Source: Phoronis australis
Taxonomy: Eukaryota; Animalia; Phoronida
Direction of reading: 5' to 3'
Assembly: GCA_002633005.1 (NCBI GenBank)
Contig: NMRA01000585.1
Coordinates: forward strand, 198,802 to 262,801
DNA length: 64,000 bases
The notes below the pieces were generated by a model. That model did no database searches. It worked only from the letters and a program-made list of their open reading frames with translations, and was not told the DNA's origin. Shown here piece by piece: positions 32,063 through 61,433 of this stretch; the stretch's first letter is position 1, and the number at the start of each line of letters is the position of its first letter. The position numbers were made by a program, and so were the translations under genes.

Positions 32063-35000
32063 TCAATCACACAAAAAATCTAACTGCCCTCTGTAACTGT
32101 GGCAGTTGATATATTTAGGCCTTGCTCCTGCTTGATTTCCATTAGGCTTCAGAGGCTATAAAAACACAAAAAATTCAACAAAAGACAAACAGTACACGTC
32201 TCTCATTTCATTGACTGTTGAATTTGTCAGGTGCCATATCACAAAATGAACATGCTACTAAACACCTGCACCCAGCCAGTTGCATGAAACAGTTCAAAAT
32301 GGTTCCCTAAATCTTGTGTCCTTCTTTACTCAGAGATGTAATATTTTTATCACTTTATCTTTATAATAAGCCCCTCTTTAACAAATGACATTTTTAGTAA
32401 CATAATAAAAAACGAGCCCTTAGTACAATGAAAATAAATAGGGACATGTATGAAAAATCCTCACGATTTGACTCAAAGCCAAAAACTGTCTTAGAAATGA
32501 AGCTAAAATAGCATTACAAAATACAATCAGTGTTTTCACCAGTCCAAAAAAAACCACCAGATTTAGGGAACTTAGTTGGGTCCCTATTTGGGACTGTTTC
32601 ATGCAACCAGGTACCCTGGATAGAGAGTGAAAACAACAACTCCACTTTTTCTTCAGCGATGTGCACTATAACTTTCATCAAGCCAGTATTTTCTTTCAAG
32701 ATAATACGGACTTCCTTGATGTGTGGAGTCAAAACTTAACACAAACTAGTTCGGAACTCACTATTTACCGTATTCGCCCTAATAAGCGCCCACGCCACTA
32801 TAAGTGTCCGCATGCGTTTTCAGACTTTGCTAAAATAAGCGCCCAGCCTATGAACGTGTATATACTCAAAATGCCTAACCTACAGGTCTAAAATTCTACA
32901 GTAACGTCTCCAATTGATCAATGAGATTTGACAGTCCTGAAAAAAATCATTGTGTGTGGAATTTGCAGACCACGACCATCACCGCTATGTCGGTATTTAG
33001 CCGTGACTATACACTTCAAACTTCCACCGTGCCACTTCAAAAAGAACGCAAGTTTTGCTGACCTTGCGAGGGACGTGTCCTAGTACGGTCTGGCCTTTCA
33101 GAACAGATGCAGCGTACTTGTCAAAGGGATTGTATTGTATTGTATGTTTCCCGTACAGATCTTCTCCATCAACAAGGATCCAAATTTGTTTGTTGTACAC
33201 GTGAACCGCGAATCGAAGACTAATAAAAACATGACCGGTGTTAAAGCCATGTAGTCAGGAAGCGCACGCAACATACAAGTGCCTATTCATGAAACGGGTG
33301 ACTAGCATAATATCGCAACAAAATAAATATTGGCATTAATTTCCAACAGTTTCTAACACCGTAGAAAATAAATCCGAAACTAAAAGAGGCGATCCAGGTC
33401 CTCTAAAGGATACAATTGTTTGTCAAAAAGTAGAATAAATATACGTAAATAAAACAACAAAATGGATTACTGAAATTTTCGGATATATTAACATCCATCG
33501 TCAACAGAAACAGAAATAAAGTTCAATCAAACACTATATGACAATTGACATCTGATATATCAGATGAGATCAACAAGTGCTAAATAAATCGCGTCCTGCT
33601 TTTATTACTGCTTGTGTTACGGTTACAATGCACACCTAGATCGGTACATCGGATTTACTCTGGCAAATGAACTCTGACGAAACGCACGCGCTCGCTCACT
33701 CACACATGCAGACAAACTTCAAAAACAAACATCACGTGACAAAAACATTGTGTGTTCGCCCAGAGATATTTCTCCTGTTACGGGATGCAATCTAGCACAA
33801 ATTTGGACTTAATACGCAGTTAATCCCAACTCCAGTGGCGGATTTAGAGGGGGGGGCATGCCCCCTAAAATTCTCCCAGATTCCCTCTGCCAGTTCGGGG
33901 GTGAGAATGTCTAAAGGGCAAAATCCTGGCTAAGGCTAATACTCTGCACTGGTCCCCCCAAAACACAAAATCCTGGATCCGCCCCAGGACTTCACAGGCA
34001 CTCAAAAAATCTTAGGGACGCTATTTTGAAAACTTCAGGAGGACTTCAAGTAATTGTTGAGTCGAAACTAAATTTTAATTCAAGAATTCAAGTTGACCTA
34101 TCGGCGATCGTGAGGCAGCGACGCATGAGTCGGCGAATTTTCGCCCTGGGATTTCAGCACGATTTTTTAAAAAATGATCGTAATTTAACACCTAAGTTCG
34201 ATAGCAATGTACCGCAATTTTGTAGAAAGTCTGTCATAGGTTACAGATGCGTCACAGAGCGTAAATTTGATGAATCCTAGCTTACGATTTCACCCGTTTC
34301 GGAGAACTGGTTTCAACCACTGTGTGCTATATTATGCACCCCCCTCCCGGAAGCGAATTTGTCTATGCGCCCTGGGCGCTTATTAGCGTGAATACGGTAG
34401 GCCTAGAAGCATAGTTGATTCTGGTATTTAGTTGTTCTGAAAACCAATTCAGTGATGGAATATTTTCTTAGTTTATTTTTCAAGACAAAAATTCACAAAC
34501 TACCAGCTAGTCCATTTCTTCACTAATTCATTAAAACAATGCTTAAAACATTTTTTTTCCATTTAAGACAATCACTAACAACTTTCATAAGTATTTTTTC
34601 AAAATGCAATGCTCGCATAGTATGAAGTTATATTTTTTCATTCCATTGCTACCCATAATGTTTTTTAAACTATTACAATGGTCTTCATCGTCTGAAAGTT
34701 TCACAGAAAACTTCCCCTTAATTTTCAGTTATTCTATGGAAATGTATGGCATTGCAAAACATACATTCAAACATTGACATCGATGACAGAAAAAACCAGT
34801 AGGCGGTTAGTAGTTTAATTTCTTGAAAGAATTACAAATGCCCATTTTATGTATTACATAACAAGCACATCATTACCGTATCAACTTACCTCATTCAAAA
34901 TAAGGCCCCAGGGATTTGGCAGATTTGGTTTCCTTAAGGATTCTGGCACAAAACGAAGTCCCAGCAAAAACTCTCGATCGTAAGTTCTAAGTTGCCCTAA

Positions 35001-38000
35001 AAGGTTATGTTTACACACAGTGAACAACTGAATCCTCGTCGCATGACATCATCAACTAGAACATGATCCCCACCCTTGACACGCATTTATGAATAGGCTT
35101 CACTTGCTGCATGGCTAGGGCAGATCATGCAGTGGCCAAAATTCCTTTGATATCCCAAGAGACAAAAGCAACTCGCCTAGCCTAATCTTGGTGTAGCAAA
35201 GTCTGTAAATGCTATTGCCATGTCATGAACATTGGAAGATTGAAAATAAAATCCATCCACTTTGCTTGGACCCCATTAACACAGTACAGGGGGCATGTAT
35301 CACCAGGATTGGGCTTTATGTTGAAATTTCCCAAGGGACAAAACGGCCTGTTGGGTGAGACTTGAAATTAAAATCAAGTGGCCAGGTTATGTCAAATATC
35401 AGAGGACACTCAATGGCTTTTTTGAACCACAGTTGAATTAACCTGCCCCCATTTCACTGAAAATTGACGCCTGCTGGGTTGGCTGGATATTTTGAGTGGC
35501 ATGCATATGCTTGACTTTTGAGTCTGTTCTGAGTAAAATATTGCCAGTTGTTGACCCATTGACCTACTATTCGCTAAGTCGTGGCTTTTCTCAAACCTTT
35601 ACCAGGTGCGCATGCAAAGAAGAGGAGAATTAGAAAGTATCCGAGTCAAAAAATACCTGATAGGTCTGAGGGTAAGGGTTGCTGCTGTTGTCGCGGAAGT
35701 AGAGGTGGGGGAAGTCTAACCGGTACATCATTGAAATGCCGTCTTGGCTGCTGCAAGTAAGAATGAGGTATTTTCAGAGCTGGTGATTTAACAGGAAGGA
35801 AATTCCACATGGGACGTTATCGACCACTTTGTGTATTTAGTCAAACAAATACTAAATTATAGATTTTAAATCCATGTAGAAAGTCTGCATAATTGGATCT
35901 GCCATTAGTTGGGTCACATGGCTAAGTCTTATTAGGAAAGCTAAGCAAAAAAGAAAGGAGTATTCATATTGAAATTGGGGTATCAATAACATAACTATTT
36001 ATTTGATACAAAACTTCAAGGTTAAATTTCAAAAACAAACCGTTACAGTTTTCTAAATTATCATTTACGTAATTCTCCTCAGTATGCAACTATTGCATTA
36101 GGTTATAAAGGCACATTCCTTTTCAATAGCCAATCAAGCAAAAGTGAGTTATACATTTGTGAAAACAATTCCTAACAGCTAAATAAAACATCAAGCTTCA
36201 TATGAATCTGATCAGCTGTTTCTAAAACAAGATGGCTCTGAAGTAAATTATACTTATCTAAGGGTCGTTCATAACTTTAACCAAAAAATAATTTGCATAT
36301 GAGGAAGAATTTTCCAATAACACCCCTGCTGGCCACTTCAATTTCCTAGAAATGTCTAATCAGCTTACTTAATTCCCTTAAAATTACGTAAGTGAAATTG
36401 TATTTTTAAAAAACACAACATATTATGCAGGCATCAAAGTTTAAAAAATTGACAATGAATTCCTAATTTTATTTCATGTTGCATCCTGTTTTTAATAACT
36501 GTAACCAGGTTGACAAGGCATGATGTATTTTTAATTGAGCTTCTTGCTGCATAGCAGGATAATAATGGAGAAGTGAGTGATTTTGGTTTAACAAGTACTC
36601 ATCATTTTGCTCAAGTGTATTATCCTTCAGTCAACTATCTCTAAGATCAAGAAATGCCACTAAATGACCAACCTAGTATTGATTACTGGTAGCTTAAACT
36701 GGCCCTTTTCACAAAGGGATTGAAATTAAACATAGTTATTGCTAGAGACCCTATTCAGCTGAAGAGCACCACAATCTTCATATTAAAGAAATGCCACTGC
36801 TTAGAAAGCTGGTTTTGTGACATTTCTGTCAAAAACACCAAATTTGCCAAGACACCTGGTTGCTATGGTAGCAAAAACCTGGTGATAGATTTACCTAAGA
36901 GAACGACATTGCTCTTTTTCCGATGTACAACAACACCACAACAATACAATAAGCCCATCAAAATTAAGCACTCTAAACTTTGATTGAAAGCTCATAAAGT
37001 TTGGATCTGTATAGATGAAGCTAAGCAGTTGTCTTAAACAATTTTCCCTTTAAAACAATAACTTTGAGCAGACCAAACAGTAACAAAATGCTACACAAAG
37101 AGCAAGATAGATGACTGGATTCAACTTACCTGATAGCGAGAGGTTGCTAACGGGGTGTGGTGGAATTCCAATGCAGAATCTGCTGACCTGGCAGTGGCTC
37201 TGGTAATTCCACTGGAAGATGTTGCATCATCCAATGCCTTCCCGGTCTTTGGATTTACAATAAGCAAAGGCTTACGCTCTCTTCTTGGAAGCACAGGACC
37301 GGAATATGGAGTCATTTCGTGGATACCTACAAAAAATTTAATGAGACAGTTATTCAATTGCTTATGAAATAAATGACTGTAACAGTGGTTGAACAAGAAA
37401 CTTTGTGTTATTTCAAGCATTACAATGTAACAAAATCCGACTTGAATGCATGTTCTTCTTAAATCAACATTAGTTTCTGTATGGTTTCAAGTGCGATTTG
37501 TTTACTAGTATATAATACCGTTTTTTTCTTCCTTTCTTCTATAATTAAATCATCAAAAACTCAATCCATCAAAGAAATGAAAATGATCTCTACTTAAAGG
37601 GCAAAATAATTGTTATACTCAATTCAATTTTAAAATTTTCTATACTGTACCTGGAAATAGAGATCCCATGGGAGCCTCATAGACATCATTTTGATGCTGT
37701 GGGTCCAGGTGCTGATGCACAGTGTCAACTGTATCTAACTGTGACCTTTTCTACAATCAATGCAACTGAACTTCAGTTGTATTTCATCACTAAGAAAATT
37801 GTTTAATCAGTGACAAAACTTCCCTAAACCTCAATGAAACAGAAGTTTGGGGCAAATATAAGACCTAGTCATGCTTTTCTGAAAGACACACCCCTGAATA
37901 CTAATTGAAACATTGAAAAGACGCGATGAGGTGTTGATCTGAAGTGAATTAACTGCAACTGCCGGTTTGGAAAGAGAATTTCAAACTACATAAACTCAAC

Positions 38001-39149
38001 AGTGACAATTTACTCGATTTCTAAAAAATAGATAATTATAAACAAGTTCAAATGTCATGTTGCTATATTGATGTCTAATTTTTCATCCAATGTCATAAGC
38101 CAATTACAAAATACAATTACCTTCTCACCAAACTGAACGTCTTGAGGAGATGAACCAATAGCCTCATCATTAGAATCATGCTTCAACGGATCAGCAAAGG
38201 TTTCATCAGCAGAGCTTGACCCAGTATTCCCTGATTGACTTACTGAATCCTCAGGGTACTTAAGATCCAATGGTTTGTGGGCAGTAGTCAACTTCAATCC
38301 AACTGACACATCTTCAGTTTGAACATCAAAAGCTGGTTCAATGGTACTGCACACTAGCATAGGGAGGTTAACTGCTGTCAAACGATTATGGAAATACCTT
38401 CCTTTACTAAGCCTCTCAACAACAGTTGCAGATTCACGTGTGTTTTGCACATATTGTACAGTTTTGCTCATTGTTTCCTGCTTTCCTTCCATATTGGTTA
38501 TGTTTGCAGTCATTTGGTCACGTAAGACATGCATCTTTGCTTTTAAGTCTTCTAGTAAGTCTTCCTCCATCTTCTTCAGCATGTCTCGAACTTTCTCAAA
38601 GTGTCCAGAAATTACTAAACTAATACGCTGTTCCTCCTCATTACATAAATTCAGTTGTTTGTTTAGTATTTCAACGCAGTTTGCGGTGAATTCACACTTT
38701 GGCTTGATACTCTCCAAAAGACCACCTACTTTTTTATTATTTTGTTCATCAGCAACATGAAAGTCAAGCATTTCATGCTCAGGGTGACTATCTTTGCAAT
38801 ACACACAGAGTGGTATTTCACACTGATCACAGAACATTGTGATTTCTTGTTTAGTGTGAATGGGACACATTAATGAAGAATCTTCGGAAGGAAGGAATGT
38901 TACCATGCTTTTGAAAGGAAAATTGTCTTTTAGACCACTGACTCCATCTGCTGGTACGATGGTATCTTTCTTACATATAGGACATTCAATGATTCCACGC
39001 TTCCTTGTAGTAGCAATGTGATCATTAATGCAACTTGTACAAAATGAATGTTGGCATGGTAGAACCTTGGGATCAGTAAAAACCGACAGACACAACGGAC
39101 AAGTGAGCTCTTCTCGAATTCCTAATAAAGCTGCAGTGTTGCTGGCCAT
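32063..39149 (-). CDS. TRIM (RING-B-box-coiled coil) protein fused to eIF4G N-terminal PABP- and eIF4E-binding motifs, ~539 aa
   Basis: Exons 39149-38121, 37750-37651, 37326-37130, 35750-35657, 34996-34890, 32155-32063. All GT-AG, phases 0/1/0/1/0 chain, 1620 nt with no internal stop. Confidence 0.85.
32270..32612. mobile_element. PIF/Harbinger-like MITE
   Basis: gttgcatgaaacagt ... actgtttcatgcaac inverted termini; second copy at 51178-55625. Confidence 0.75.
32768..34397. mobile_element. Tc/pogo-like non-autonomous DNA transposon carrying a HIRAN-like fragment
   Basis: TA|ccgtattcgccctaataagcgccca ... tgggcgcttattagcgtgaatacgg|TA; ORF 32997-33200 (NPFDKYAASV..GHVPRK); nested MITE 33833-33987. 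Confidence 0.8.
34890..34996 (-). CDS. Exon with eIF4E-binding motif (RTYDREFLLGLRFVPESLRKPNLPNPWGLILNE)
   Basis: ccttttag acceptor and GAG|gtaagt donor; the YxxxxL-phi motif is identical to eIF4G YDREFLL; too short for the ORF track. Confidence 0.92.
37130..37326 (-). CDS. Exon with eIF4G-type PABP-binding motif (RRERKPLLIVNPKTGK)
   Basis: tttttgtag acceptor and CAG|gtaagt donor; resembles human eIF4G1 KRERKTIRIRDPNQGGK. Confidence 0.8.
38121..39149 (-). CDS. TRIM exon: C3HC4 RING, B-box 2, coiled coil
   Basis: CPLC..PCQHSFCTSC..CPIC RING; CPIH..FCDQC..CVYC..H..H B-box; heptad region; gccATGG start; AAG|gtaatt donor. Confidence 0.95.
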
Positions 39150-39523
39150 GGCTGCAGGAACAGATTCTCCTCAGTCAATCGCCTAAATCAGTCCAGCGTA
39201 ACCCTGTGTACTGAAGCATCGAGATCAAGAGTTAACTCCATCTTGCCATTGTTTGAAACTGCTTAGTTGGAAGCAAAATGCACTAAAATTTGCAATTCTT
39301 ATGGGCAATGTTTTGTGTATCCTGTCAGCCTGTATGCTTAACACCTAGAATAGATCTTTTGTTGTGCGTCGTGTCTTATGGCAGACTGGCACTGGAAGTT
39401 AATAGACTCCACCAAAGTTTGCAGATGCCGTGGAAAAGTGGGTCCAACTCACTCAAAATCCCTTTAGTCTTGTTGTTGGACTTGCTGTTGGACAGCCCGC
39501 ACTCAACGGTCTGAGCTTGCGCT

Positions 39524-39647
39524 CTTCACTTTCTGTTTAGTGCTTGTGATAATGGCCGCCGGGATTTCCCATCAGTGGGGAATTTCCACAAATAAACCCC
39601 GAAGCGCCTTCTATTGGTAGACACCAATGAGCTATAATCTCATTGGT
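39524..39647 (-). promoter_or_regulatory. Promoter of the TRIM-eIF4G chimera: two NF-kB sites, ISRE/PRDI-like element, CCAAT boxes
   Basis: GGGATTTCCC (39561-39570); GGGAATTTCC (39578-39587); minus-strand GAAAGTGAAG (39524-39533); CCAAT/ATTGG at 39613, 39624 and 39642. Confidence 0.65.
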
Positions 39648-39652
39648 CGATT

Positions 39653-40004
39653 TGCTGTGCGTGAACTTGGAATACATCAGGAAACTTAAGTACTTCATTA
39701 AAAAAAAACACGTCCAGGTCTCTAAAAATTTGCACTATACTAAGTCAAATTACATTTTAATAAAATAACGTAAATACCAACCAACTTTTTTCAACTATTG
39801 CCGACCAAACAATAAATAATTTAACTATTCACATTCCTCCGATTCTTTGACACAAGTTACGGTAAAGGGAAAAATGGGTGATCATGAGACCAATAATCAC
39901 AAAAATTCCTTACAATAAACCTGACTGCCCAAATGAATATTCGATTCCAAGTTCACGCAAACGCGATCTTGAAGATTAAGCGGATTCCAAGTTCACGCAC
40001 AGCA
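39653..40004. mobile_element. MITE with 21-bp TIR
   Basis: tgctgtgcgtgaacttggaat ... attccaagttcacgcacagca, with GATT on both flanks. Confidence 0.75.
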
Positions 40005-40329
40005 GATTATTCCTTTTGTTTCGGAAAGAGTTAGACAAGCGGTCGCCAGGTGGCATGACCATCCTTAGGCACTTATATCAGAGACCATTAGCGTTTTGCT
40101 GTTATTGACCATTTACTTCATGAGCCGACACAAGCTCATTGTCTAACGTAGATGCGGCAGGTGAGCTAGATTATGTCCTCATGCACTGAGATGCGTTACA
40201 GATGAAAAAGCATCATCTTGGGCATTACAATCACTAAAAGCAATGCCAACTCCGGCTACTATTGAATTGGCTATTCAGGACAGTTACCTTCCTCCGCTAC
40301 GACGGGCGTGAGTGCACGGCTAACCTGCT

Positions 40330-42410: not shown

Positions 42411-43184
42411 CCTCTGTGTGGGCCTACAGCTAGGCAGTTGGCAAACCGTGCCTCTATTCATGCGCGCACCCTGGGGGGGGGGGGGGGGGGCNNNNNTAAA
42501 CCTGTTACAGTTGGTCTCGTTTTTGTTGATCTTCATTGTTATACAGTGACATAATACACTGGAGAGAGTGTGGTCACTTAAACCAAGGAGAAGTGGGCCT
42601 ACAGCTAGGCAGTTGGAAAACCGTGCCTCCATTCACGCGCGCACCCTGGGGGGGGTGCTCGAAAGAGGCCCCTAGCTCATTTGGCGGATTGGTGAGAGTT
42701 GTTTGTACCACAATGTCCTGCCGGGAGTATGACTTTTTGATGACCGTGTCAGTGAAGTCATAAGGGTCAGCATCGGATAGGTACGAGCTAGCGCCGGTAG
42801 TTCATTCTTTTTCACACAGCGTGCAGGGTGAACTGTAGTCTGTCATCTCAGCTCGTAACTGCCGTCCGTGCGTAGTCTATGTAGGACTTAGACAAATGTC
42901 CACAAAACTGCAGATTTACCCCAGTAAAAGCATACTTTTGTGAAAGTAAAAAGACTGCAGAATTTGATTTTAACCAAGCTATATATGTATTGACAGCAGT
43001 GGTATCAATAAGATGACCAAGATTTATTTCACGAATAGCCAAAAACGTTAAATACAGTTTTCTAAAATATTTTGTTTTCGTTATCTGCAACTTTGAAGAT
43101 TTTCATATGTAAACCATACAACCCAGTCTGTTTACAAACTTCTTCGTTCATGCAAAAGTGGAACATTTAAAAATGTGGCAAATC

Positions 43185-43330
43185 AAGAATTATCCGACCC
43201 AGAAATAAACGAGTTCTCCATTGCATTTGTCGTGACATGCGAGATGGACTGATAGGCCTGAAGTCCAGCACGATTCCTTTAGGTGGACGAGTGTACCGAC
43301 GTGTCCAGGTGAAAGCTGACGTGAAGGTCA
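43185..43330 (+). pseudogene. hAT transposase (DUF4371-like) fragment
   Basis: DPEINE / VLHCICRDMRD / VDECTDVSR motif pieces across frameshifts. Confidence 0.55.
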
Positions 43331-44234
43331 TAACAGGATTCCTGGCGGGAAAATTTTGGAATCTCTTTTTGTACTTACAGTACACAATGTTCTCATGCTG
43401 GACAGTTTTTGCAAAGTAATTCGAGGAGTAACCCGAGACATTTTTAAAATATACGTCACTTACTCCATTGACTTACTCTACCCTCTGACACAGCGCTATA
43501 CCTATACTGAAAAGTTGCCCTGTGGAAACCTGGTGAACGACACACGGAATTCTGTGTGGGCATCAATGCGCATGCCTTGGTCGGAAGTGTACCGATCACA
43601 TCGCCACCACTTGCACACTCCTTTATACGCTGTACTCGGGGTTCCCTTGATTTTTGTTTACTTAGAACACTACCGGTTTCAATACATTGCACCTATTCAA
43701 GTCAAAGGTGGTCGCCAAGCCTTTCGTAGCACTATGAGAGAGTGCAGACCGTTAACTCCAAACAATGTTGCTGGGTGTCAGTCCTAGGTCTTCCCATCAC
43801 GCAAATTCGTTCAGCAAAAGGTTGAGGTATTTTTACGGCCGTGTTTACAGACATCTTTGATTAGGCCATATTCCCTACACTAGAAGTTGCAGGGAAGAAA
43901 CAGAGGCGTTTATGGGCAGGACCAGTTTACAAATTTGTAATCATACTGGGAAACTCCCACTCGATTTTTATTTCAGTGTATCATCATGACCTGTACAAAA
44001 TAGTAGCAAAAACAATGGCTGCACTTAATTCAGATTATTTAGCCGGGTCAACCAGCCAAGACATTTGCTTGGTCCTCCATGACAACTTCCAGCTTTTAAA
44101 CCAATCAAGATGTCTCAGCAAGTTGACCCCACAGAATCGGGGAAGACATATCAAATTAGAAACGTTGATAATAGAATTTTATTCACCAGAAATCCCATCA
44201 GGAGCAACACCCACAACCAGGTGTCCCAACGGCT

Positions 44235-47200
44235 TTAAATAGTAGACAATTCACTTGTGTCTAGCAAACATTTCAATTTCCTCCAGGTGGCAATCTTTCT
44301 AGTCTGTAGAATAATGTCAACAAATTGATAATGGCATTTACAGTTTATTTTAATAAACTCTTAAAACAATTCCAAGTGCACAAAATACAATGATTTATTC
44401 ACTCATCAATAGAAATATTCTTTCCACAAAAAGGTAAACAACTGTCTAAGGCCCACCCTGCCCTTGCTTCCCACATCAACTAAGTTGACAATTTTGGGAG
44501 TACTGCTAAATTCTAGAAATGGCAACTGCTTATAAAGCTACTTCAAATACACGTGAAAGAAACTATGTTCTTATTCAGACCATACAAAACTGATCTCAAT
44601 TTGTTTGTTACTGGAACGAACAGTCTGAATTTCTGGACTCCGAAAAGGAAAAGAACTAACATTTCGTTATCACTTCAGCCCATAAAATGACTCGCTGAGT
44701 CAAGTCAACCCACTGAACCTGGTCTCTAGTAATAATGAACTGCCAGAACTTCCCTAGTAATAAAATCCACTCCAACCTGAGTAAGGAACAAGTCGAGACC
44801 AGTTTTACTAAAGTAAGTGGTCATAATCAAAAGTAATTTTTGTAAGCTAAGGCAGTCTATAGTAACTTTAACCCATATCTGTCTCTTGTAGTCGTAAAGA
44901 CTGAATTATTATGGTCTTCAGTTGTTGTGACCCTTCCACACTATGCTGTAAACATCCCCTGCAAACGAGATACGGATAGATTAGGAGAAATCTTGAATTT
45001 CTCTAATGTAACCTGACGAGCCCAACTGAGGGAGGGGGGGGGGGGTGTGGGGGGGTGACTAAGCGAGTTTTTGAAGTTTTATAACTGGTCAACTGTAAAT
45101 GAAAAAAATGCCTTGAAATGTTCATTGGAAAGAAGTACTCAACATGGCATATCAGCTAATTATACAGCACCACTAACTCACAATACAAGTTGAGCCTGAA
45201 TACACAGAATCCATCCGAAAATGGAAATGCACTGCCGTCACCTGAATAAAACCTACTTTTGAATGTCATGAAAATCCATCAAGAAAGTCCAAAGATACAG
45301 AGGCAAACCTAAAAACATAAAACTGCCACTAGGGGACACAGAGGTAGCTGGATTGGTCTAAACTTATCCTCATCTGCTTAGCAGTGTACCCCAGACAGCA
45401 ATATGCGACCACATGTACATAAAAATAATGCCCACAAACTACAACCTCATTCATATGAAGTGCAAACTCATTGATATAGCACAAATCGTTTGATGAGTTG
45501 ATTTGAAACAATTTTACTACTAATCAAGGCACCAACAATAACTACAATTCATGCTACTATTAATCAGTACATTCTTTCATAGAACAAAGAGCTACAGTGC
45601 CCAATGGACAAGTTATCGATTCAAATAGGAACACATTTGGTAAATCTTGGTTGCTAACAATAGAACACAACTCAGTCTGTCAATGTCATTGCAATCGTGA
45701 AAACTTATTGCCACAAAATGAGGGGAACAACCTCTGAAACATACAGCACAAAGACATGGGCCACTCGCACCCAGACGGTGAGAGGGCTGAAAGCTGCAAA
45801 AGTATCAATCGTGCGGTGTACAAAGATAACAACTGTGAACAGAAGGTGAAATAACACACATCAGTGTACACATGCATGCACATTGTAAATGTTTTAAAAG
45901 TACAAACCTTCTCTTTCTTTGCTCTTTCCAAACTTTGCTGAGCCAAAATGGACTTTTCCTGAGCTTCTTTGGCAGCCTCTTGATGAATCTGAGCAATTGT
46001 TTTGGGGTTGTTGTCTGCCCGCCTTGGTACCCAATTATTCTGCAGAAACATGTCATTGAAATTCATAAAGAACTCAAGCCAGCTGCAATTTTTTTTTCTC
46101 TTTTCTGAAGTATCAATCATAATTAGACACAGACACCATGAAAGCATCCTCCTGCAAAAAGCTAAGGTGTCAAGAATAGAACATGTTAGTCAGAAACAAC
46201 GTTGTCAAATAAACAACATCTAAGACAAACCTGCCGCAACTCTATGATGTCTTGTAACAAGAATCTTATCCTAACACCCGTTTTTCGCTGCGTCACAATT
46301 TTTTCCATCTGCTGGAAATACTGCTCAACCCTAGGCTGCAAGCAAAAAAAAACAATTAATATTACTTGTAGAAGCTACAAACCCACTTTTGTCACCAAAG
46401 TAACTTTTCATTTACATCACACATCATTAAGAAATTAGTCTCAAAACATTTCTTATTCGAAACAGGTGTGATTCACGGGGTTAGAAAGAAAAAACTAGCA
46501 CATTGTTAATGTTTGAGAGACAAAGCCCTGCAAGTGGCATTTTATTTGCTGAGTCTGGTCAACAACAAACTGTCAGTTCTTTGCAAGACCACAAATCCCT
46601 TCTCCTCTGAATGAAGAACGAGATGAAAGCGGTAAAAGTGATCTGAACCAAAACTAAGTTAATTTGACAAGATTTAATGCTGCTTTTACATTCATTTTTT
46701 TAACAACTAAAACACAAAACAATAATACCCCACAGTTGAAAGATACCAGTTGTGCAGAGAAGTGCTTATAAATAAAGAATGGGCCAGAGTTCAACAAAGT
46801 AACAGTTGAATCTCAAAATGCTGGCAAACATACTTTTGAAAATTTATCAAAACCTGAGAAATGTTGGACTTGTGGACTGAAGAGCATTTCCTAAGTACCA
46901 GATGCATGAACATTAAGATCGGGCCAAAACTCAGGAACATACAATAGAATCTTAAACTGCTGATGGTATGCATAACAGCACTTGAAAATCCAACGTTTTA
47001 CATCTAATCAAAATCCTTTTTGAATCAGTTGCACACAGAAGAGAATTTCCTACATGAAAGTGTAAAATGGGACAAAATTCCGGAAAAATACAGGTGAATC
47101 ACAAAATGCTGACAATTCGCATTTTTGAAATTTGGTTGAAATCCCCGACACATGTAGGAACTGTGTACAGAAGAGTATTATTCTTCACACAGAAGCACAG

Positions 47201-50200: not shown

Positions 50201-53200
50201 TGACATTTCATCTTCATGTTTATGTGTAGAAACTAATAACCTTTGTACCCAAGTCTTATTTAATATCTGAATTAAAATATGTGAAACAGGCTAAAAGTGA
50301 TTTAACAATGTGTATTTTTCATGACACTTAAAATGTGCTTCTGATCTCAACAAGTAAAATTCATTCTAGGTGTCAATTTTTTTCCAATGCAATGTTACGA
50401 CATTTACTGAATTAAGGCTTATTCATGTTAATTCGATAACTGAGCTGGTGGTCCTGGGGGTGGGGTCCACGATAAAATAAGGAAACTCACTCATCTAGAG
50501 AATTTTATTGGAAACAGCATAGTTTTGAAGAGAAACTGCTGTGAAAAAGTCACTCTTGACTTCTGTGCATCACGTGCCATACACCTCTTATTTTGGGAGC
50601 ACTCCCACCCAGGACAATATGAATATGTGCTGCTAGCCTACCCGGCATCGGGTGAGTTTCCAAAAAGAAACACTCAGTTTCACTCAATAAAACTGTTATT
50701 CAGTGGGGTAACTGGTGGGGATAACATCACCGAACGATGTTGATAGAAACTGATTGCTAAAAACTTACCAAGTAATGTTGTGTACTCTTCGAATGGAACT
50801 GTGCATAGTCATAGAGCACACACGGGGCTTCAGCATCCACACACTTTTTGTCAGTTAGTTGACCCTGTTGACCGCAATTGTCCACGAATATAGTAACCTT
50901 AGGTCTTTTGAGAATGTGTGGCCACCTGTCGAAGACTTGCACCAGGGAAATTAGCAGTAATAAGGCTTAGCGCGACGACGTATTTTGACAAAAATTCCAT
51001 CTTTTACCAGTTGTTTACATGCAGATAGCCACGCATGCGCAATTCAATCACCACTAGTACAGCAGCGACACCGCGAGGAGAATTCTCCGAATAGCCCCAT
51101 TGGAAACTGTGAAGTGAGAGCATAAGACTAAATTTCTGTCTTGTCTTAAATTCACATTTTATGAAACAGGCCCCAGTGGCCGGTTGCATGAAACAGTCCT
51201 AAACAGGGACTCAACTAAGGTCCCTAAGCCTTTTTGTGTATTTGTGTCTTTATGGACTAACAGATGCAATACTTTTTCTATCATTTTGTCTTTATTATGA
51301 GCTTATGAGCTCCTCTTTGATAATGGCATTTTTTAATATAACTAAAAACTGAGCCCAGAGTTCATTGAAAATATATGGGGACTCAGTCCTTAAATTGGGG
51401 GAGTTGCATGAAAAGATCCCTAATTACTTTCGAAAATATTGACAATTCAACACAAAGAACACTCTCGATTTGCATCAAAATCAGAAGTTGACTTAGTAAT
51501 GAAACTGAAACAATACAAGAAAGTGCAATCGATGTTTTCACAAGTTCAAAAACACGCAGCAGATTTAGGGAACTTACCGTAAACGTTCGGGTTAACACCC
51601 TGGGCGGTTAAATTGGCAAACCCAAAAAATCGGGGGTGGGCGGTTAACCAGACATGGGCGCTTAAACGTGAAATTTCAAGAAATCCAGGGTGGGCGGTTA
51701 ACCGAACATATTACGACAGGCAACCGCCCTGGGCGGTTAATCTTACCTCGTACTCGGAACGCGTAGAACTTTTCAAAGAGCGTTATTGTCACGTCGCCAC
51801 ATGACGGGAAAAATGTCATAACAGTGGATGATCCCAACAAAGATTCTCTTGCCCTCAGATTAGTTATTCACTATTAAATTTACAGAATTGCTGAGTAATA
51901 GCCCCGTGGCGTCCTGCGGTCTTGTTACTTTGCCCTCAAGAGAGCAGACGACCAGTGACCACGCAGCCTCTACTTGGATTGCAACTATTTCAAGATGTGA
52001 CCTTGTTAAAGTGCGCGCGTGCAAGATTCACGTGTTGCAGAGGTCACAGCAGACATCAAATTTATGGTTACATTCTCGTACTGAGCTTCCAAGTTCATAG
52101 ACCCTATTCACGCCGACAGGAGGCGCGTTCCAAAACGAGGCTCGCTACGATAGCTCTGTTAGCTCATCGGCAAAGTTCTGTTTCAGTCCGTGTTGTTCCG
52201 CGAACGACTAGAAAAAATACGGACGTGCAACTGTCTGCTTTACAATCTCTAAAGACGTTGAGATTTGGAAGCGTTGGGTCGTTGCCATACGCCGCGACGA
52301 AGCAAAATATGTCCGTGTAAAATTTATAAATGTTTTCGAAAAGTTAGATCATATTTTGTCGCATCTCGGTCAGTTGTCAAGCATCATAGTAACGACCAGA
52401 GAATGCGCCAGCCAGGCTGTGTTTTCATGACTACAGATTTAGGGGTTTAGGGGGGGGGGGGCATGGCCCCTCTANGGGCATGGCCCCTCTAAAATTGTAT
52501 CAGATCCCATTTTAGAGTTCGGGTGCGAATTGCTGATTAGCACACGTGCGCAACCAGGGGGTCTTGGGGGGGGTGAATAAACAACGCATAGGCGCTGAAT
52601 GAACCCCGTTTACCGTTTTTTCTCCAAAAAGGACAGGGTCCCCAATCCCTCAAATTTGGGACCCAATATCGGCCCTATTCCCCTCTCAAAAGTATTGAAA
52701 TATCACGCGAAATTCCCCCCACGAGGCATGCCCCTAGTGAAAAATCTCTCTGAGTTCACTTCACCTGTAACCACACAGGTGACACTTTTTAATAGCACAA
52801 AAGGCTACTTTAAATTGAGACAGAGCCTATGAGCGCTTGCTACAGGGCGGGGGTGCTATTGATGGTGATCGGGAGGTAGATTGTTCCTGCCCTCACTCGG
52901 CGAAAAAATCGCCTCTCAGTAGGCACCTTTCCCCTCGGATGAACGAGGCCCTGCAGAAACATGATAACTATGATTGCATTGTCCAGTTAACTGAAATTGA
53001 GTTCTAAAACGAGGTTATGTTTTGGACAAACGAATTAGGTGTTTTAATTTTAAAATTTAACTTGGTCCAGATTGATATTTGAAATCTAACACATGAGATA
53101 GACGTAAGAATTATTACAACCGAGAAAGCAGAATTGATGGTCAAATAATTTTTGCTTTCAATTACGAGCCTGGTTTTTTATTTTAATAAAAAACTATTTA

Positions 53201-56200
53201 ATAACATCAATTATTCTTTCAGATCAATGACAAATCAACTGTTAGTCCCAGTGAGTGCATAGCCATCAGGCTATGCTTGATGTTAATATTCTTGATCAAC
53301 AAATTAAACCAGATGTGGCTAATCCACCACTGTCAACTCGTCAACAATACAAGCAGATGACCTGGTCCGCGTAGAAAGTATTTTGATCAACAATTTACAA
53401 GAAAAAACGTAACCCTGCATTCAGCATAATAACTAATCCATAACACTACGATCGCCTCAATTTGGTCATGTTTACGTTTCATGTTTCAAACCTAGTTTTC
53501 CGAAAAAAATTAAATCCTTTAGTCAGACAACTCTTTGGCGCCTTAACTTGTTCTCTAATGTAATTTTCTACGTCTCTGTGGTTCATTGTCGACACATCAT
53601 TAAAATTTAATATCCAGGTTGGACTCGAAAGACCTGCTATTTAACTCACGCAATGTCTACTTTCGCTTTGTTTATCGCAGTGAGCCTCGCTTTGGATTTT
53701 AATGTCCGCCGCGTGAATAGGGTCTATAGTCTGAGAGCAGTTTTAAAATTAGTTGTAAGAAAAGTTTGAAAAACTTAATTCAGATGTTTTTTGTGTTTAG
53801 GATGTTTATAGTCGAAACGCCGTGATTCAATGGCATTTTCAGCGTATAGTTCTGCGGCTAGCTATTTTATCTCGACCGCCCGGCATTGCTCACTTGCCGT
53901 TGCGCCAAACATGCTCGGCAAAGAACTAGGCCTAAGACAAGAATCGGGGTTAAGCGGCTGTGAGCCACTCGTCAATCAAGAATAAAATTTCGAGCCAAGA
54001 CATAAATATGTGATAAAACGCCACAAAACAGCGATGTTTCAATTCATTCTTAAACGATCACCTTACCAAACTTCGTGGTGGAAAAACATTTATTTTTCAT
54101 GCAAGATGTCCAGATTATGCTATTATATCACTTGCAATATCGCACTGCGGCATTGTTCGGTCCCGCTGTTAGCGTGCAATGTCTCAGTCGACTGATAATC
54201 GTGACTTGGAAATGCCGTCAAGTAATATAACGGCCTCTTTCAATATATGTGCCTACGTGTGAGTCACCTGTCAATCACAAGTTGGTGTCAAGGTAACATG
54301 CACTGCAAACTGTGGGAACTTGCGCACGTGCACCAAAATGACTACAAAGTCACACATCAAAAGAGAATAGCCCTAAGTAACAAAAAACGGGCGTGACTAT
54401 GTACTTTTAAGCTGTTGTTACGAAAGACCCAGTTCTTTACGATATTCCTCCGTTGCCAATGTTATCCAAAACTGCGATGTCAAGTCTATTCCGATATTTC
54501 CCGGCTCGATGCTCCCTAAGCCCATGCCCATAGGTAGCTGCGTGCATCTCCTACCCACTATCGCCAATTTTCAGTCAGTCTACGTCGTGGATATTTCAGA
54601 CTCGAATGGTAAGAATTTTTGTTCAGGCTGAAACTGGCCAATGTATAAACAAATTTATTCTGGATGGCGAAAAAGGGGATGTGGAAACGATAACTGAATT
54701 CACACTTATGCTTATACGTGGGGGCTGACGCAAGAAATAGTAAAGAACAGCCAGCGACATTAGTTAAATCTGCTAATGCCAGTTTGACTGAGATGCAATA
54801 AGCGAAAAACAAAATTTGACTAGCAGTTTTTTATTACCTCAAGATCATATACAAACATACATTATTGCCAACCTTTGAATTCAGAAATCGATAGGCAGCA
54901 ACAAAATCGGTAACCCATTAAGGCACTTGTACTGTCTCTTCGGTCGCCACACACCGCGAAAGTTACATTCATCAAAACATTGAGAATTTGACATCTTTCC
55001 GTGAGTTGTGAGATTTGCTCAAAGTACGAGAGCTTCCCACCTTAATAGAATTTGGAGGGTTGGCAAAACCATTGTCACATTTCTGTGACCTTATTTTTTC
55101 GAATATGTGATTTATCTAGTGCACTGCAAACGGAAACTCAGCGCGACAGACAATGTCACTGAAAACGGAGGTTTTGAAGCCGGCGACGTTCTTCAACTTT
55201 GCAAATATGGGAAGAAAATAAAGAGACAAAAACCTTCAAGTATTATATTTTGAAATGAGTCCATGACCCTAGACAATAACTCGTTACTTGTATTGTAATT
55301 CACATTGCTAAACCACCGTCTGGGAGGCCCGGCTCTTTGCGCTCACTGTGATAATCGATCTTTTTCTAAAAGTTGGGGAAGCGCGTTTCCTTAGCACTGG
55401 GCGCTAAATCTTCATTCCTGAAAGTCGGGCATGGGCGCTTAACCGAGAGGTGGGTGCTTAACTGGAAATCTTCAAAAATCGCAGGGGTGCGCTTAACTGA
55501 GCAGTGGGCGGTTAAATCGAAAATCCACCTAAAGTAGGGGGTGGGCGGTTAACTGAGCATGGGCGTTAACCTGAACGTTTACAGTAGCTGAGTCCCCATT
55601 TGGGACTGTTTCATACAACCAAGCACAGAACACTTCTCCAATTTCAATCCCAGCCCAGGCATATCGCAATTTGACCTTTGACTCCAAAAATGAGGCTTGA
55701 AACAGTTAAGGCCAAGAAAAAATAAGCATAATTGATTCTGCTCTGCACCTGACTCGTTTTGTAACCTGCGCCTAACTGTTCAAAGAAAAATTCCCATCCT
55801 CACTGTTTTTAGTGAAGTTCCTTTTCTATGTTTTCAAAAAGCTACAAAAAAGTATCTAAGAAATTTTTTTTAAAACGAATTAGCTTGGCAACTCATCAAC
55901 AATCAACTATTTCATGACCTTAATTTGATTTGGTTTTGAATCGCAATGGTCACATTGTGTGACATGCTCACATCACACTTTTGGTTAGAATTCTTAATTC
56001 CGTTGTAATAAACATGGATCACATAGTTCCAAATATTTTTCGCAGCAATATATAAGTATGCCAAATTGACCAAAATAATTTTAAGTCACTAAAAAACCAA
56101 TACATCTGACTTCAACTGACCTTTGCTTTTTCATGATCTATATCTTTCCCTATAGTCATTAATAGCCTGCACAGACACTCCAAGCTGTGTTCATCCATGG

Positions 56201-59200
56201 ACTTCAAAAGTTTGTGCAAACAGTCATGCATGATTGCTTCTGTCAACATCTTTAACTTGAAGAGCTCTCCAATGAATCTGTGGGCAGAATTATGATGGAT
56301 TTAGGTCATGCTTCATCTAGAGGGTTATATACTCAACTTAACTTTTCACAGCTATTTTTTCAAAAGAAAATTTGCCAATGCCAAATAAATTTTGAAGACG
56401 TGAATAACATACTCTAGGTTGTAATCACTGAAATGCTCTAAAATTATTTGTCGATTTTCATGACATCATAGTGTTGAGGCATGGTATTCAAGATTTCAGG
56501 TGAAAAATACCATCTTTTTAATGAAGGGTATTGGTTGTAATTCACAGCTGCAAACCCTAGTACAACGCACGTCTCTCGTTTGACATTCCAAGCCCGGTCA
56601 TAATAAAATCAAAATTGTTTTGAATTTGAGTCAAATAAACCAAGACGACGAACAGTTTTAAGAGGCTGTTATATCAATCACAAATCAATGGGTACGCAAT
56701 TCATTAAAAAACTCATACATTTGAAAAAATTGGCCGCCTATACTAATGTAGGGTCCCTGGTCTTCCCTCACTTCTGGGCAGAGGCCCTCTATATTAATAT
56801 AGGAGCCCAGGTTTTTGGCAGCCTCTCATAATACTATAGAGGGTTCCACTCTTCCATCACCTTAGGACATGACCTCACAGAAAGCACTGCCGCCAGGCGA
56901 CAGAATGTTTATGACTGTGGCACTACCAGTGGCAAGTTGTTTTTTGAAACCACAGTTGTATCTCCTAAGTCCCTTACAGGATATTTGTACTTTATGATAA
57001 GAATATTCATTACATCCATGTTATGGTCACACGGAAAGTTCAAGGTCTTTGCTGCTTACAGTAGGACGGTAGATTTACCTAATGTGTGCCAGCGATCTCC
57101 GCTTGATTGTGTACATTTTTTCTTCCCAGGCTGCTTCAAGACTTTCCGTTGCAACCTCCTAGGGTGAAAAAGAACAATGTCATGAGACTTTCATCCTCTG
57201 CTAAGTGGTCTAAGGCAAAATCAGATCAAAATAAAGTTAATAAAACATTTGGACGACCAAAACTGAAAACTTGAGTTCAAGGGGAAGGCTGACATTTTTT
57301 TGGTTTTGTTTCGACTCAAAATTCAAATCTTGCACACATTTTAGCACAATTTTTCTGGCCCTTATACAAGACTATTACTTAGGGACACTATCTGTTTTGA
57401 CGCTGAAAAAAATTTCTTTTTGTGGGATCACTGTTGAATGGGATAATGTCATTTGATATGAAAGGCTTGAAGTTAAAGCAAGCTTTTGATGCTTCCCTTA
57501 GTATGAAAATGGCAGCTAACAAGGGTCACATTCGGAAAAAGTTTCAAGACTTCAGCTACTCAATCATTAATCAAACAATCAAATTATTTTTTTGTTTTCA
57601 GCTGAAGGTTCTTTAATGACAATTCTTTGATAGCTTGATGGGTGGTGGCTCGTTCCGAAGTCCCTCGTGTCAGGGCAACATCGCGTGTAGAAAGGAAAGT
57701 TGTAGATTTTGAAATTGATAACTGCAGTCAGTGGTTTGCTTCAGACTATCATCAGCCAACAACAGCTTCAAAGCAGTTTTGACAATGTGGACCAGACAGG
57801 TTATACAAAATGGTGTTCGGATTAGTGCAGTGAACCTCTTGATTCTCAGCAATGGTTTATACAACTTGTCACCGTTACTTGAGAGACAGTGATAATGGCT
57901 GTGCTAACATACTGCAACATAAACTAGAAGAGGAGTATACAATGCAAAACATTCTTACGTGCATGTGAGCAGATCCACCCTGCACTAACCTTTGGTTCCA
58001 TCTCATCTACATCCTTTTCAAACTCTCGCTGACACCTACTCAGTAGCAGCTTGCGGAAACCAATAATTTCATTTGGTTTGTCTTTTGACGGCACTTTTAC
58101 CTTGAAGCACAATATGGAAAGCCTACTCAACAATCACACTTTATTGTGAAGAAACTAACAGAACAAGGAAAGCAGGTAGCCTGATGTAAACAGCCTAGGC
58201 AATAGTCACTTACATAGGGTCCCGTATTTGAGAACCAGTATGATGCTTGTTATGCACAAGCCAATATTCTCTTTAGAAAATTTCACGTGCTCTTTTGCAG
58301 TTAAAACGAAACTTTTCAACTCCTTTTACTTCCCCATTTACACTGCCCCCTTGTGGTGGAACTTTAAAGTCATCAACCTTCAACAAGCTTAATACGTCTT
58401 ATCACAATACATTTAAGCATTTCTCGAGTTACTCCAAATTTGGGGAACTACAAGAATCTATACTCTACATAATTTTCAGTGTTGTAAGGCTACCCGGCGT
58501 AACCTTAATCCCAGTTTTATGACTCGCTTGTGTCAATCTTTAATCCTATAATCTTTGCCATCAACCAGTCTACCTTATATTTTCACTCACTCATTCATCT
58601 GTTGTGGATGCATTCACTTTTTACTGTTTATATGTAGTTCTGTTATTATAATCTTTTTTTGGTGTAATTTTATCTTTCTTTCATTAGATTATTCTGTATT
58701 GTTTTGTATGTGGACAACAGTAAAGTTCGCAGTATAAATATTCATTCATTCATTCACTCAGTGAAGAAAACGGGTTCTCAAAATGCGCAATCACTGTAAG
58801 TGACCGTTACCGAGCTTAATTATTTCTGTAAATATAGTGCAGATGTTGTGATATGAAATCTGACAATTGCTACAAATATGGTCGACTTTTACTGATACAT
58901 TAAATTCTTAGATCTGTTTCAGTAGTTTCTGTTGACTACTCCCAGTCTTTTCTGTGCAACAAATACAAAATGTATTGATGAAGCACAAGACAATTTTCAG
59001 AAAAAAAAAAACAAAAAAAGGGCGCAGGTGGCCTGATGTCATTTGTGGAGCATCAGACGTACGCAGGCCTCATGGTTGGGCCCATTGCACCAAACACCTG
59101 AGCTAAAAACACGAAAGCCCCGTTGTGGTTCTTAGTGAAGGAAGTGTTCAAGTCTGCCTGTCCCCTTTAAGAAACAGACAGACTTTTCCACTTATCGTCA

Positions 59201-61336
59201 TGCATTATATAGACAAAAACAGGCACCAGTATGTTATATTCATATTTGCACCATTTGTCTTGAATTTCCTTACCTCAAGATAGTACTAACTTCTAGGCTT
59301 GGAAACAACTGATAGATTGTTAAGGCCATGCCTGGTGATAAAATGACACACTGGCTCAAGCTAGCTCAAAGAACCTAGTCTCAATTAACTGTCAATTCAT
59401 TTCAAGACCAAACACCACTTCTCTTCTGAATATGAGGAACAATTCGAGACCAATAGAAGGGTAAATAGTCTGAATCAAGTTTTTTTGACTGAAAAGGCAG
59501 TGCACATTTATAGACCTTGCAAGGTCTTCACAGGTATTTAAATACACCAAATCATACACTACTCACATGCTCTTACTTTTGGTTATCTTACGCATTCAAC
59601 AGTTAATAATTTGTGGAGACATAATAAGCACAAAGTCAACCTTCACTCACCTGCATAAGATATTTGCATAAGTTTGCATAAGCTACACTGTAAAGCGGTT
59701 CTTTAATGGCCTTTTCAAACACAAGATCTACAGTGCCTAAGAGTCTCTCTTCTGTGTCGATGGTCTGGTCAAGAAGTTGGGTGACAAGAGATGAGAATTT
59801 CGTTGGCGTGAGTTTGTTTAGAATACTTCGCACTTTCCTGAACAAATCCTGTAAAATGCAGGACATGGCTTTTAAATTTTAAACAACTGCACAACAATCC
59901 GATATGCCAGTACATATAGCACTATGGCATCAAACTGTAAACAAACAAAAAATTATTTAGCACTATTATCAGCCCGTGATAGGTTCAAAGAACGAGGACC
60001 TTGTGGTTGCACACTTACAATTTACAGCTTTTCACTCAGAATATAATCTACATTCATCTGTGTGTTTAATCATTACAACCTCCTGATCAGTTAAACCTCA
60101 GACAACAGTGGTGTCCATCACAAGGATAAAAATCAGTTTATAAATATATATAAATCTCAAACTGGCATAGAAATGTATATCACAAACATTTCTAAGCCTG
60201 GTCAGCACATTGTTGAACATTCTCGTGGTCTCAATTTGTACAGCCCCATGAATCATGTCACTTACCTACCACGGTTCAAAGAGTTACTAAAACCCAATGG
60301 AACTACACTTTCATCAAGGGGTGCCACAGAGATATATGGCACGCCACTGTTGACCACAGAACACAAACCTAATGCATAGGTGTCTAATTTTTTATTGTAT
60401 TTCTTCAGGCAAACTAAGATCCTAACCAAACTACTTTTCACAAGCGAACATCAATTTCAGAAGTTAAACAGTTTTGAAAAATCACCAAGTAGTTGTAGTC
60501 CACACTCCACAATATTTCGATTAATACCTGGTAATCTTTGCCCGTTTATAAGTGCTGTCCTTCAAGTCATCACTAATGTCAAGAGCGTCAATGATAAACA
60601 GTCTTTTGATGACAGCTGTTCCTACTGTGAAATATGGGACAAGTTTCAAATGGCTGAAAGGGAGAACACCTCACAAAATATAATGAAATACCTCAGTTTT
60701 AATGACCTCTGAGTCTTCTTGCACATTCATCATGGCACTTCTAATTCTCCAGGGGTTCTCAGCATGGTGAAGTTGCACATTGTCCATGGGCAGAGTGATC
60801 GCCTTTGGGCCCCAGTCCCGCTCTTCAGATCGCCTGTCACCTCCCATACTTTTCTGGCAGCGATGGCTTTCAAATCACAGAACAGAGAAACGACAGTTCA
60901 CTGATAGTGGACTCAAAGAGACCGTACACTACAAATACTCGATAAATAGTCTATTCTGACACTACCCAAAACATCAACTCCAACCCCAAAATTCAGGGTG
61001 GGTTTGATGACCATGCCTAGGTGACACTGGACGACAGGATCAATACAAGACTTCTGTCTGGCACTCTCAGGCTCAGATTGTAGGCTAATTGAGGGCTGAT
61101 TACAGGTGCCTTTGGCTAGTGCCGTGGCTGTGCCTGTGTCAAGAGTCAGACAACACGACTAGTATTGTTCTCAGTAAATTGAACTCAACAGTTTCACACT
61201 GCGCCCGTGGACTTCACACTCTACCAGGGCCATGGGGGCTTACAGGCCTTAGCATTACGTAAATTCTATTTTAGAGTCGTTTTCAAGACGAATAAACACA
61301 AGTTTGTGCTTCGGTAATGTCTTACACTTCCGCCAT
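44235..61336 (-). CDS. Truncated eIF4G paralogue consisting of the MIF4G (HEAT-1) core only, ~345 aa
   Basis: Exons 61336-61326, 60866-60692, 59848-59651, 58100-57990, 57158-57079, 56277-56121, 46335-46231, 46039-45908, 44303-44235. All GT-AG and in frame (1038 nt). Motifs [62 protein letters not shown]. The first and last exons are the least certain. Confidence 0.85.
45908..46335 (-). CDS. eIF4G MIF4G C-terminal exons (46335-46231 and 46039-45908)
   Basis: [10 protein letters not shown]…[14 protein letters not shown] and [22 protein letters not shown]. Confidence 0.93.
51577..55584. mobile_element. Tc/pogo-like DNA transposon derivative with gggcggttaa subterminal repeats
   Basis: TA|ccgtaaacgttcgggttaacaccc ... 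gggcgttaacctgaacgtttacag|TA. Confidence 0.8.
52097..53727. mobile_element. Nested TIR element (ISL2EU/PIF-like termini)
   Basis: atagaccctattcacgc ... gcgtgaatagggtctat. Confidence 0.7.
56121..56277 (-). CDS. eIF4G MIF4G exon ([19 protein letters not shown]...[12 protein letters not shown])
   Basis: Near-identity to the metazoan eIF4G motif; canonical splice sites; missed by the ORF track. Confidence 0.95.
59651..59848 (-). CDS. eIF4G MIF4G exon ([15 protein letters not shown]...[10 protein letters not shown])
   Basis: ttttacag acceptor and CAG|gtgagt donor; clear MIF4G start of metazoan eIF4G. Confidence 0.95.
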
Positions 61337-61433
61337 GTTTATTGTTAGCTAGCGTCATCTATTAGTCGAAATGCAAACTAACTGATAGGGACTGGCATGA
61401 AACTCAAAAAATGAGGACGCGCAGCTAAATGGT

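Follow-up and report, generated by a model that had tools for sequence, protein, structure and literature searches.

Within a window of 64,000 nucleotides from the phoronid Phoronis australis (contig NMRA01000585.1, forward-strand positions 198,802 to 262,801; all coordinates below count from the first letter of this stretch), two neighbouring genes on the minus strand, here called A and B, carry complementary and non-overlapping parts of the translation initiation factor eIF4G. The ATG of gene B lies 5792 nt from the stop of gene A, and the order of the parts is permuted relative to native eIF4G. Transcription was assessed with three raw-read runs (X1 to X3) and one contig set (X4), all of the source species, and profile searches of the window covered its 2909 six-frame open reading frames (ORFs). 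Both genes are transcribed, each being present in all three raw-read runs, and all splice sites and both ORFs are intact across 13 exons. An earlier note, made from the letters of this DNA, had claimed adjacent same-strand genes with complementary eIF4G parts in permuted order; the gene structures and the minus-strand transcription bear this out, and neither gene turned out to be silent, an outcome that the note had named as a way for its proposal to fail. The split eIF4G locus is real and unusual. The window as a whole is about 39% GC, and the gene bodies are CpG-poor.

Gene A comprises eight coding exons with GT-AG sites and an ORF of 318 aa, whose product is 57-61% identical to vertebrate eIF4G1/3 across about 300 aa; Pfam MIF4G matches 3 of the 7 exons scanned. 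Its MIF4G domain is of the eIF4G1/3 type, and an identity as DAP5 was rejected, as exon 2 scores 84 bits against eIF4G1/3 and 52 against DAP5, exon 5 scores 81 and 36 bits, respectively, and the C-terminal domains are absent. With its own first exon, an early stop and a 3′ untranslated region (UTR) holding AATAAA at 44399 and 44183, this is the intact gene for a MIF4G core alone that had been claimed, and its polypeptide lacks the eIF4E site, MA3 and W2. The long helical insert encoded by exon 4 is 12 residues shorter than that of human eIF4G1. RNA supports six of the seven junctions, namely 1-2, 2-3, 3-4, 4-5 and 7-8 by joints (18, 21 and 3 reads for 44957/45907, between exons 7 and 8) and 5-6 (56121/46335) by a loose end of A type in X3; the joint between exons 6 and 7, 46231/46039, is absent among the joints listed. 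Read depth is unbroken from about 61340 to 60692 over exon 1, and the AG at 60866 shows no joint or loose end among the rows listed. Because reads run through this AG, gene A likely begins in its exon 1 with no upstream continuation, and we consider it unlikely that gene A forms the 3′ half of some gene whose start lies outside the window. Its 5′ UTR contains five upstream ATGs (at 61336, 61255, 61233, 61014 and 60974), and its 5′ end bears the motif AACATGGCGG, which we take to resemble a YY1 site.

Gene B encodes 503 aa in five exons, beginning at ATG 39149. The RING of its first coding exon passes the Pfam cut-off with zinc ligands that are intact and invariant or nearly so in alignment, the B-box also passes (PF00643, E 1e-7) with intact ligands, and TRIM_CC falls below its cut-off (E 0.019). 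The structural model of this exon contains a helix of 110 residues (130-240, pLDDT about 90), its top fold match is the RBCC of TRIM28, and the RING of TRIM2 is matched with an rmsd of 1.5. Judged by this modelled structure, gene B is a TRIM, and the sequence makes E3 ligase activity likely. The exon is similar to the N-terminal halves of TRIM-NHL and filamin-type TRIMs, which are common among its matches, and an exon of this kind likely supplied the start of B. The downstream exons contain no MIF4G, by exon translations and profiles. The motif YDREFLLGLR in exon 4 fits the extended eIF4E-binding consensus YX(R/K)X2L-phi-X2(R/K) (PMC6061780); the exon matches human eIF4G1 (5T46_B, E 9e-4) and is the sole match to the eIF4E-site profile in the window (E 9e-8). 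The motif RRERKPLLIVNPKTG in exon 2 is identical at 8 of 15 positions to the best vertebrate PABP-site core, and its score is reached by 1-54 of 5000 shuffles of the B tail, depending on which of 8 homologue cores, picked by a self-written motif, is used; the cores and models for this site are vertebrate only. We regard a PABP site in B as moderately supported.

The TRIM exon is likely spliced to the eIF4G exons, since its phase-1 donor at 38128 (GTGAGA) forms a GT-AG join that keeps the frame open into exon 2, where phase-0 donors give stops, and since depth is similar over the B exons. One Logan contig (X4) spans exons 4 and 5, and AATAAA occurs at 31615, 31038 and 30922 in the 3′ UTR. Depth over gene B is low in all three raw-read runs, and several upstream ATGs precede its start as well (39150-40100, minus strand). 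The claim of a TRIM gene carrying PABP and eIF4E sites stands for the RBCC and the eIF4E motif, and holds less firmly for the PABP site and for the joint between the two parts.

Coding exons of genes A and B, with content and support
Feature	Position	Strand	Content	Support
Gene A exon 1	60692..61340	-	5′ UTR of ~490 nt; ATG 60847 in strong context; residues 1-52	unbroken depth; joint 59847/60691
Gene A exon 2	59651..59848	-	MIF4G start (human 760-824)	Pfam PF02854 E 2e-11; joints
Gene A exon 3	57990..58100	-		PDB eIF4G1 E 7e-9; joints
Gene A exon 4	57079..57158	-		alignment; joints
Gene A exon 5	56121..56277	-	MIF4G	Pfam E 2e-15; joint 56277/57079
Gene A exon 6	46231..46335	-	MIF4G end	A-type loose end at 56121 in X3
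Gene A exon 7	45908..46039	-	post-MIF4G helix (human 989-1032), first half of eIF3c/d-binding subdomain	PDB eIF4G1 E 5e-7
Gene A last exon	44180..44958	-	five codons; stop 44943-44941	joint 44957/45907; depth; 3′ end approximate
Gene B coding exon 1	38129..39149	-	RING (C3HC4), B-box, long coiled coil, beta hairpin, disordered linker	Pfam; model; transcribed
Gene B exon 2	37130..37326	-	PABP-site-like motif RRERKPLLIVNPKTG	shuffle test
Gene B exon 3	35657..35750	-	Pro/Gln-rich spacer	splice sites; frame; depth
Gene B exon 4	34890..34996	-	YDREFLLGLR, then linker and non-canonical segment	5T46_B; profile; contig joint to exon 5
Gene B last exon	30900..32155	-	30 codons; stop 32065-32063	X4 contig records; depth; 3′ end approximate

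A single misassembled eIF4G is an unlikely cause of this arrangement and was rejected, as gene A starts with its own exon and ends in its own stop and UTR, gene B has a last exon of its own, and another paralogue is also expressed. Profiles detected neither MA3/W2 nor eIF3e-linker exons in the window (best E 1.3 and 0.32, respectively), and the claimed absence of MA3/W2 exons holds there. The split was also said to fall at a boundary like that used by picornaviral proteases. Indeed, the 2A and L proteases cut eIF4G at 681/682 and 674/675, and the split between B and A falls in the same linker, after the eIF4E site (PMC12709193).

In human eIF4G numbering, gene A covers about 704-1037 by alignment, so that it lacks 682-703 and everything from 1038 onward. 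The missing parts include roughly half of the stretch that binds RNA (682-720) and the whole eIF3e subdomain, 1052-1104. Its first 20 residues include four basic and four acidic ones. S767, T773, Q779, Q783 and D982 of human eIF4G have been mutated to probe eIF4A binding (PMC7470955), and gene A keeps the equivalents of four of the five, with Ser in place of Q779; we predict from these residues that A binds eIF4A. Similarly, seven of the eight side chains of eIF4G that contact the EMCV internal ribosome entry site (IRES) are kept (PMC10462655), which leaves the idea that A escapes viral IRES binding unsupported. Tethering work found 653-1053 fully active, 653-1020 inactive and activity lost with N-terminal cuts past 686, with the eIF3e subdomain dispensable (PMC7470955), whereas a review calls that subdomain essential (PMC12709193). 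The endpoints of A fall between the active and the inactive fragment. It is the start near 704 and the stop near 1037, unlike the whole C-terminal part of eIF4G that constitutes viral p100, that make ribosome recruitment by A uncertain, and on this comparison of sequences we lean towards its being weak.

Loose read ends between 56121 and 58102 reveal the expression of at least one additional transcript of eIF4G type, which shares about 88% identity with A in exon 3. Its peptides, translated by hand, are more canonical (VKRRSLGNIR, AYANMCKYLM and PRVDQYFQQM), and its share of reads at 58035 is 47 of 75 in X1, 68 of 87 in X2 and 0 of 1 in X3; it may be another variably expressed member of the family and not a housekeeping gene. 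An upstream peptide in X4 differs (ANMCKCLLE against ANMCKYLMQ), which may reflect two such paralogues or gene conversion. Between A and the paralogue, a hand count over three 30-nt ends, a small sample biased to divergent ends, gives 13 silent and 5 replacement changes, and this excess of silent changes suggests long-term purifying selection on A. Between haplotypes, counted from the coding rows among 40 of 127 and 40 of 118 variant rows listed, 13 replacement and 7 silent changes remain after two paralogue-derived sites were dropped, a pN/pS of 0.48. In X1 and X2, every read departs from the window at many sites of A (44500-44930 and 60700-61300), marking a different haplotype that has 10 nt inserted at 61143 in the 5′ UTR, and X3 is closer to the window; the reads of X1 and X2, differing from the window at all counted sites, could derive from a very close paralogue. 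Gene A further departs from its homologues at 43 columns that are invariant in 8 vertebrate sequences.

Scaled depth over A exons 6-7 is 23, 20 and 5 in X1, X2 and X3, respectively, and over the TRIM exon of B it is 6.6, 3.0 and 3.5, giving A:B ratios of about 3.5, 6.8 and 1.6. The levels of the two genes do not track each other, for which three unlabelled samples are weak evidence. As for the co-expression that the earlier note had asked about, both transcripts are present together in all three runs and their depths do not move together.

Relatives of the TRIM exon are distant, with 2 matches at 32-33% among 2448 candidates and 150 listed representatives at 22-46%; the nearest TRIM clusters to B in the protein atlas are mostly molluscan. 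None of 151 related TRIMs matches the eIF4E-site or PABP-site profiles, and among 80 related TRIMs of at least 450 aa none of the 56 scanned contains MIF4G by Pfam. The large protein searches used single exons and not spliced A or B, and searches of the protein sets with the eIF4E exon found nothing, a weak negative for so short a motif. Likewise, no TRIM-eIF4G fusion was found in the literature searched, which included few subscription journals, or in protein sets that hold no close relative of the B TRIM, so that this is weak evidence. We infer that A and B are lineage-specific, fast-evolving regulators of initiation. The earlier note had derived the pair from tandem duplication with reciprocal exon loss, of which there is no trace: tblastn, blastn, tblastx and profiles within the window found no decayed exons and no A-B homology beyond dispersed repeats. 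Such an origin is possible and would require a number of clean deletions. Alternatively, a fragment extending from the PABP exon through the post-MIF4G exon may have formed a circle that then opened between the eIF4E exon and the MIF4G exon; this single step would account for the permuted order, the absence of overlap and the truncation at both ends.

We tentatively favour, at somewhat short of an even chance, a model in which gene B encodes a TRIM repressor or ligase directed at eIF4E, and the adjacent gene A encodes a fast-evolving core that binds eIF4A but recruits ribosomes weakly. The B protein would dimerise through its coiled coil, thereby presenting two eIF4E clamps and two PABP-site motifs. 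Having no eIF4A or eIF3 module, it would compete with eIF4G for eIF4E in the manner of a 4E-BP, and it may in addition ubiquitinate eIF4E, PABP or proteins that partner with them. The A protein would soak up eIF4A or serve a few structured mRNAs. With separate promoters, the two genes need not act as one switch. Both probably regulate translation under stress or in immunity.

Several known systems resemble parts of this model. TRIM22, going by the title of a paper, reportedly blocks the binding of eIF4E to eIF4G. As predicted for B, TRIM22 and PML direct a TRIM scaffold at eIF4E. PML acts through its RING on a distinct dorsal site (PMC11185188), whereas B has eIF4G's own clamp as captured exons. 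The closest functional parallel for B may be the 4E-BPs and other eIF4E-binding repressors (PMC6061780), which have in common with it a YX4L-phi motif and a lateral-binding segment without an eIF4A or eIF3 module, a combination for which competition with eIF4G is expected; B most plausibly works like a 4E-BP, to go by its motifs. Unlike the 4E-BPs, its motif matches that of eIF4G itself, a PABP-site-like motif lies upstream and a RING/B-box/coiled-coil ligase is attached. TRIMCyp, like B, has the C-terminal domain of a TRIM replaced by a piece of a host factor that viruses exploit, although there CypA arrived by retrotransposition and binds capsids, whereas the eIF4G part of B consists of four exons separated by introns (PMC11764967). 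Gene A resembles short forms of eIF4G, but its sequence is that of neither DAP5 nor full p100. Host-encoded eIF4G without an eIF4E site is also found as DAP5/eIF4G2 and as IFG-1 p130 of C. elegans (PMC6337596), from which A differs in being of eIF4G1/3 type, in also lacking MA3, W2 and the eIF3e subdomain and in being a separate gene beside the N-terminal motifs. The p50 made by HIV protease is, as A is, a MIF4G-centred fragment (PMC12709193). In contrast to cleavage by the 2A and L proteases, the division here is written in the genome, with a likely ligase attached to the N-terminal part. A falls short of the fully active 653-1053 at either end, with a start near 704 and a stop near 1037, whereas p100 comprises the entire C-terminal part. 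Mextli is said to place MIF4G before an eIF4E motif in one polypeptide that promotes translation. It would share the permuted order, from which the present locus differs in that A has its own stop and 3′ UTR.

A number of points weigh against the model we favour. Its binding, ubiquitination and translation steps are predicted from sequence, and the role in stress or immunity leans on knowledge of the TRIM family, on upstream ORFs and on variable expression in unlabelled samples. The PABP site has no PDB match and its profile match (E 4.3, rank 5 of 2909) is insignificant without prior focus on that exon. The joint from the TRIM to exon 2, 38129/37326, is absent among the joints listed, where poly-G artefacts dominate. 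The pN/pS of A is far above 0.1 (p 6e-4) and does not differ from 1 (p 0.16), and no orthologue of A or B was found in the protein sets searched. Finally, A keeps the conserved helix past human 1020, and since 653-1053 is fully active despite having no eIF3e subdomain, A may well function as a core.

The earlier note had proposed a two-component switch copying 2A/L action genetically, in which B takes away eIF4E while A, induced along with it, provides a working core for cap-independent initiation. The parts are indeed intact, complementary and adjacent, each of the three runs contains both, the linker in which they are divided is the one that proteases attack, and A keeps eIF4A contacts as well as the helix past 1020. 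Its 5′ UTR with five upstream ATGs also fits. Multiple upstream ATGs are a layout typical of stress-translated mRNAs. Against this, the A:B ratio varies from run to run, A is shorter than p100, with no MA3, W2 or eIF3e subdomain and an incomplete RNA-binding stretch, the adjacency is explained by origin alone, and a DAP5-type short eIF4G already fills the role (PMC6337596). We think the switch unlikely, and think the same of its inducible form, in which the TRIM destroys or sequesters the cap machinery while the MIF4G-only gene, controlled by upstream ORFs, keeps selected mRNAs translating. A little more doubtful is an antiviral bait, with B displaying eIF4G segments that viruses seize in order to ubiquitinate viral proteins and A holding IRES RNA and eIF4A in a dead-end complex. 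TRIMCyp gives a precedent for a hijacked host factor in place of a TRIM C-terminal domain (PMC11764967), viral proteases prefer eIF4E-bound eIF4G (PMC12709193), and the retained IRES contacts and the high replacement polymorphism of A are in keeping with it. Yet an intact eIF4E motif would hit host eIF4E first, and the last exon of B bears no significant likeness to the cleavage-site linker (34 homologue segments; best 80 of 1000 shuffles, median 820).

The locus might also hold relaxed leftovers, transcribed but drifting pieces of a partial, permuted eIF4G duplicate whose exons simply serve the TRIM as a tail. A pN/pS compatible with neutrality, the departures of A at invariant columns, the weak expression of B and the failure to find orthologues in the protein sets searched speak for such decay, which we nonetheless hold to be improbable, given that both ORFs and all splice sites have stayed intact, that silent changes exceed replacements in the 30 codons compared with the paralogue, and that B kept exactly two short motifs of a long disordered region. 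It is more improbable still, to the point of our giving it little weight, that there is no fusion at all, the TRIM exon ending at the in-frame stop 38055 as a stand-alone RBCC and the eIF4G exons being spliced from another first exon or from A. The missing joint would be explained, the TRIM frame does continue past the donor to that stop, and depth in the X1 bin 37676-38259 is 2.67, more than the exon alone explains. The donor at 38128 nevertheless keeps the frame into exon 2, depth is similar over the B exons, the intron between the TRIM and exon 2 is devoid of AATAAA, and no A exon ends in phase 1.

If the model of an eIF4E-directed TRIM is right, a TRIM with an eIF4G clamp would exemplify how a genome can itself encode a natural means of degrading or blocking the cap-binding factor, an architecture absent among the 151 related TRIMs and in the literature searched. 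It would offer a test of whether invertebrates shut down cap-dependent translation by a dedicated ligase, alongside 4E-BP and the eIF2-alpha kinases. Gene A, as a natural truncation between the active and inactive laboratory fragments, would test the minimal need for ribosome recruitment, and the permuted, non-overlapping layout provides a clear case for how scaffold modules move into new genes.

Several further features accompany the two genes. Directly upstream of the A promoter (61640-64000, minus strand) lie broken fragments with stops and frameshifts, presumably of a Gypsy-like retrotransposon pol, and between genes A and B (40680-42200, plus strand) lie broken fragments that we take to be LINE-like reverse transcriptase, both labels going by their ORFs. 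Poly-C runs at 42472-42490 and 45030-45055 draw thousands of poly-G reads, which give rise to spurious peaks of depth and spurious joints there; at about 42491 the assembly has a gap of four N. Short fragments are presumed to belong to a hAT transposase (28300-28770, minus strand), a HIRAN-type domain (33000-33260, minus strand) and a THAP domain (52210-52450, plus strand). Tandem repeats with units of 42 nt and 58 nt occupy 6527-6904 and 8286-9270, respectively. At about 1500-8100 on the plus strand are the 3′ exons of a gene with a Met/Gln/Pro-rich tail and DPFGL, which we assume to resemble PICALM/AP180 and which is a possible synteny anchor.

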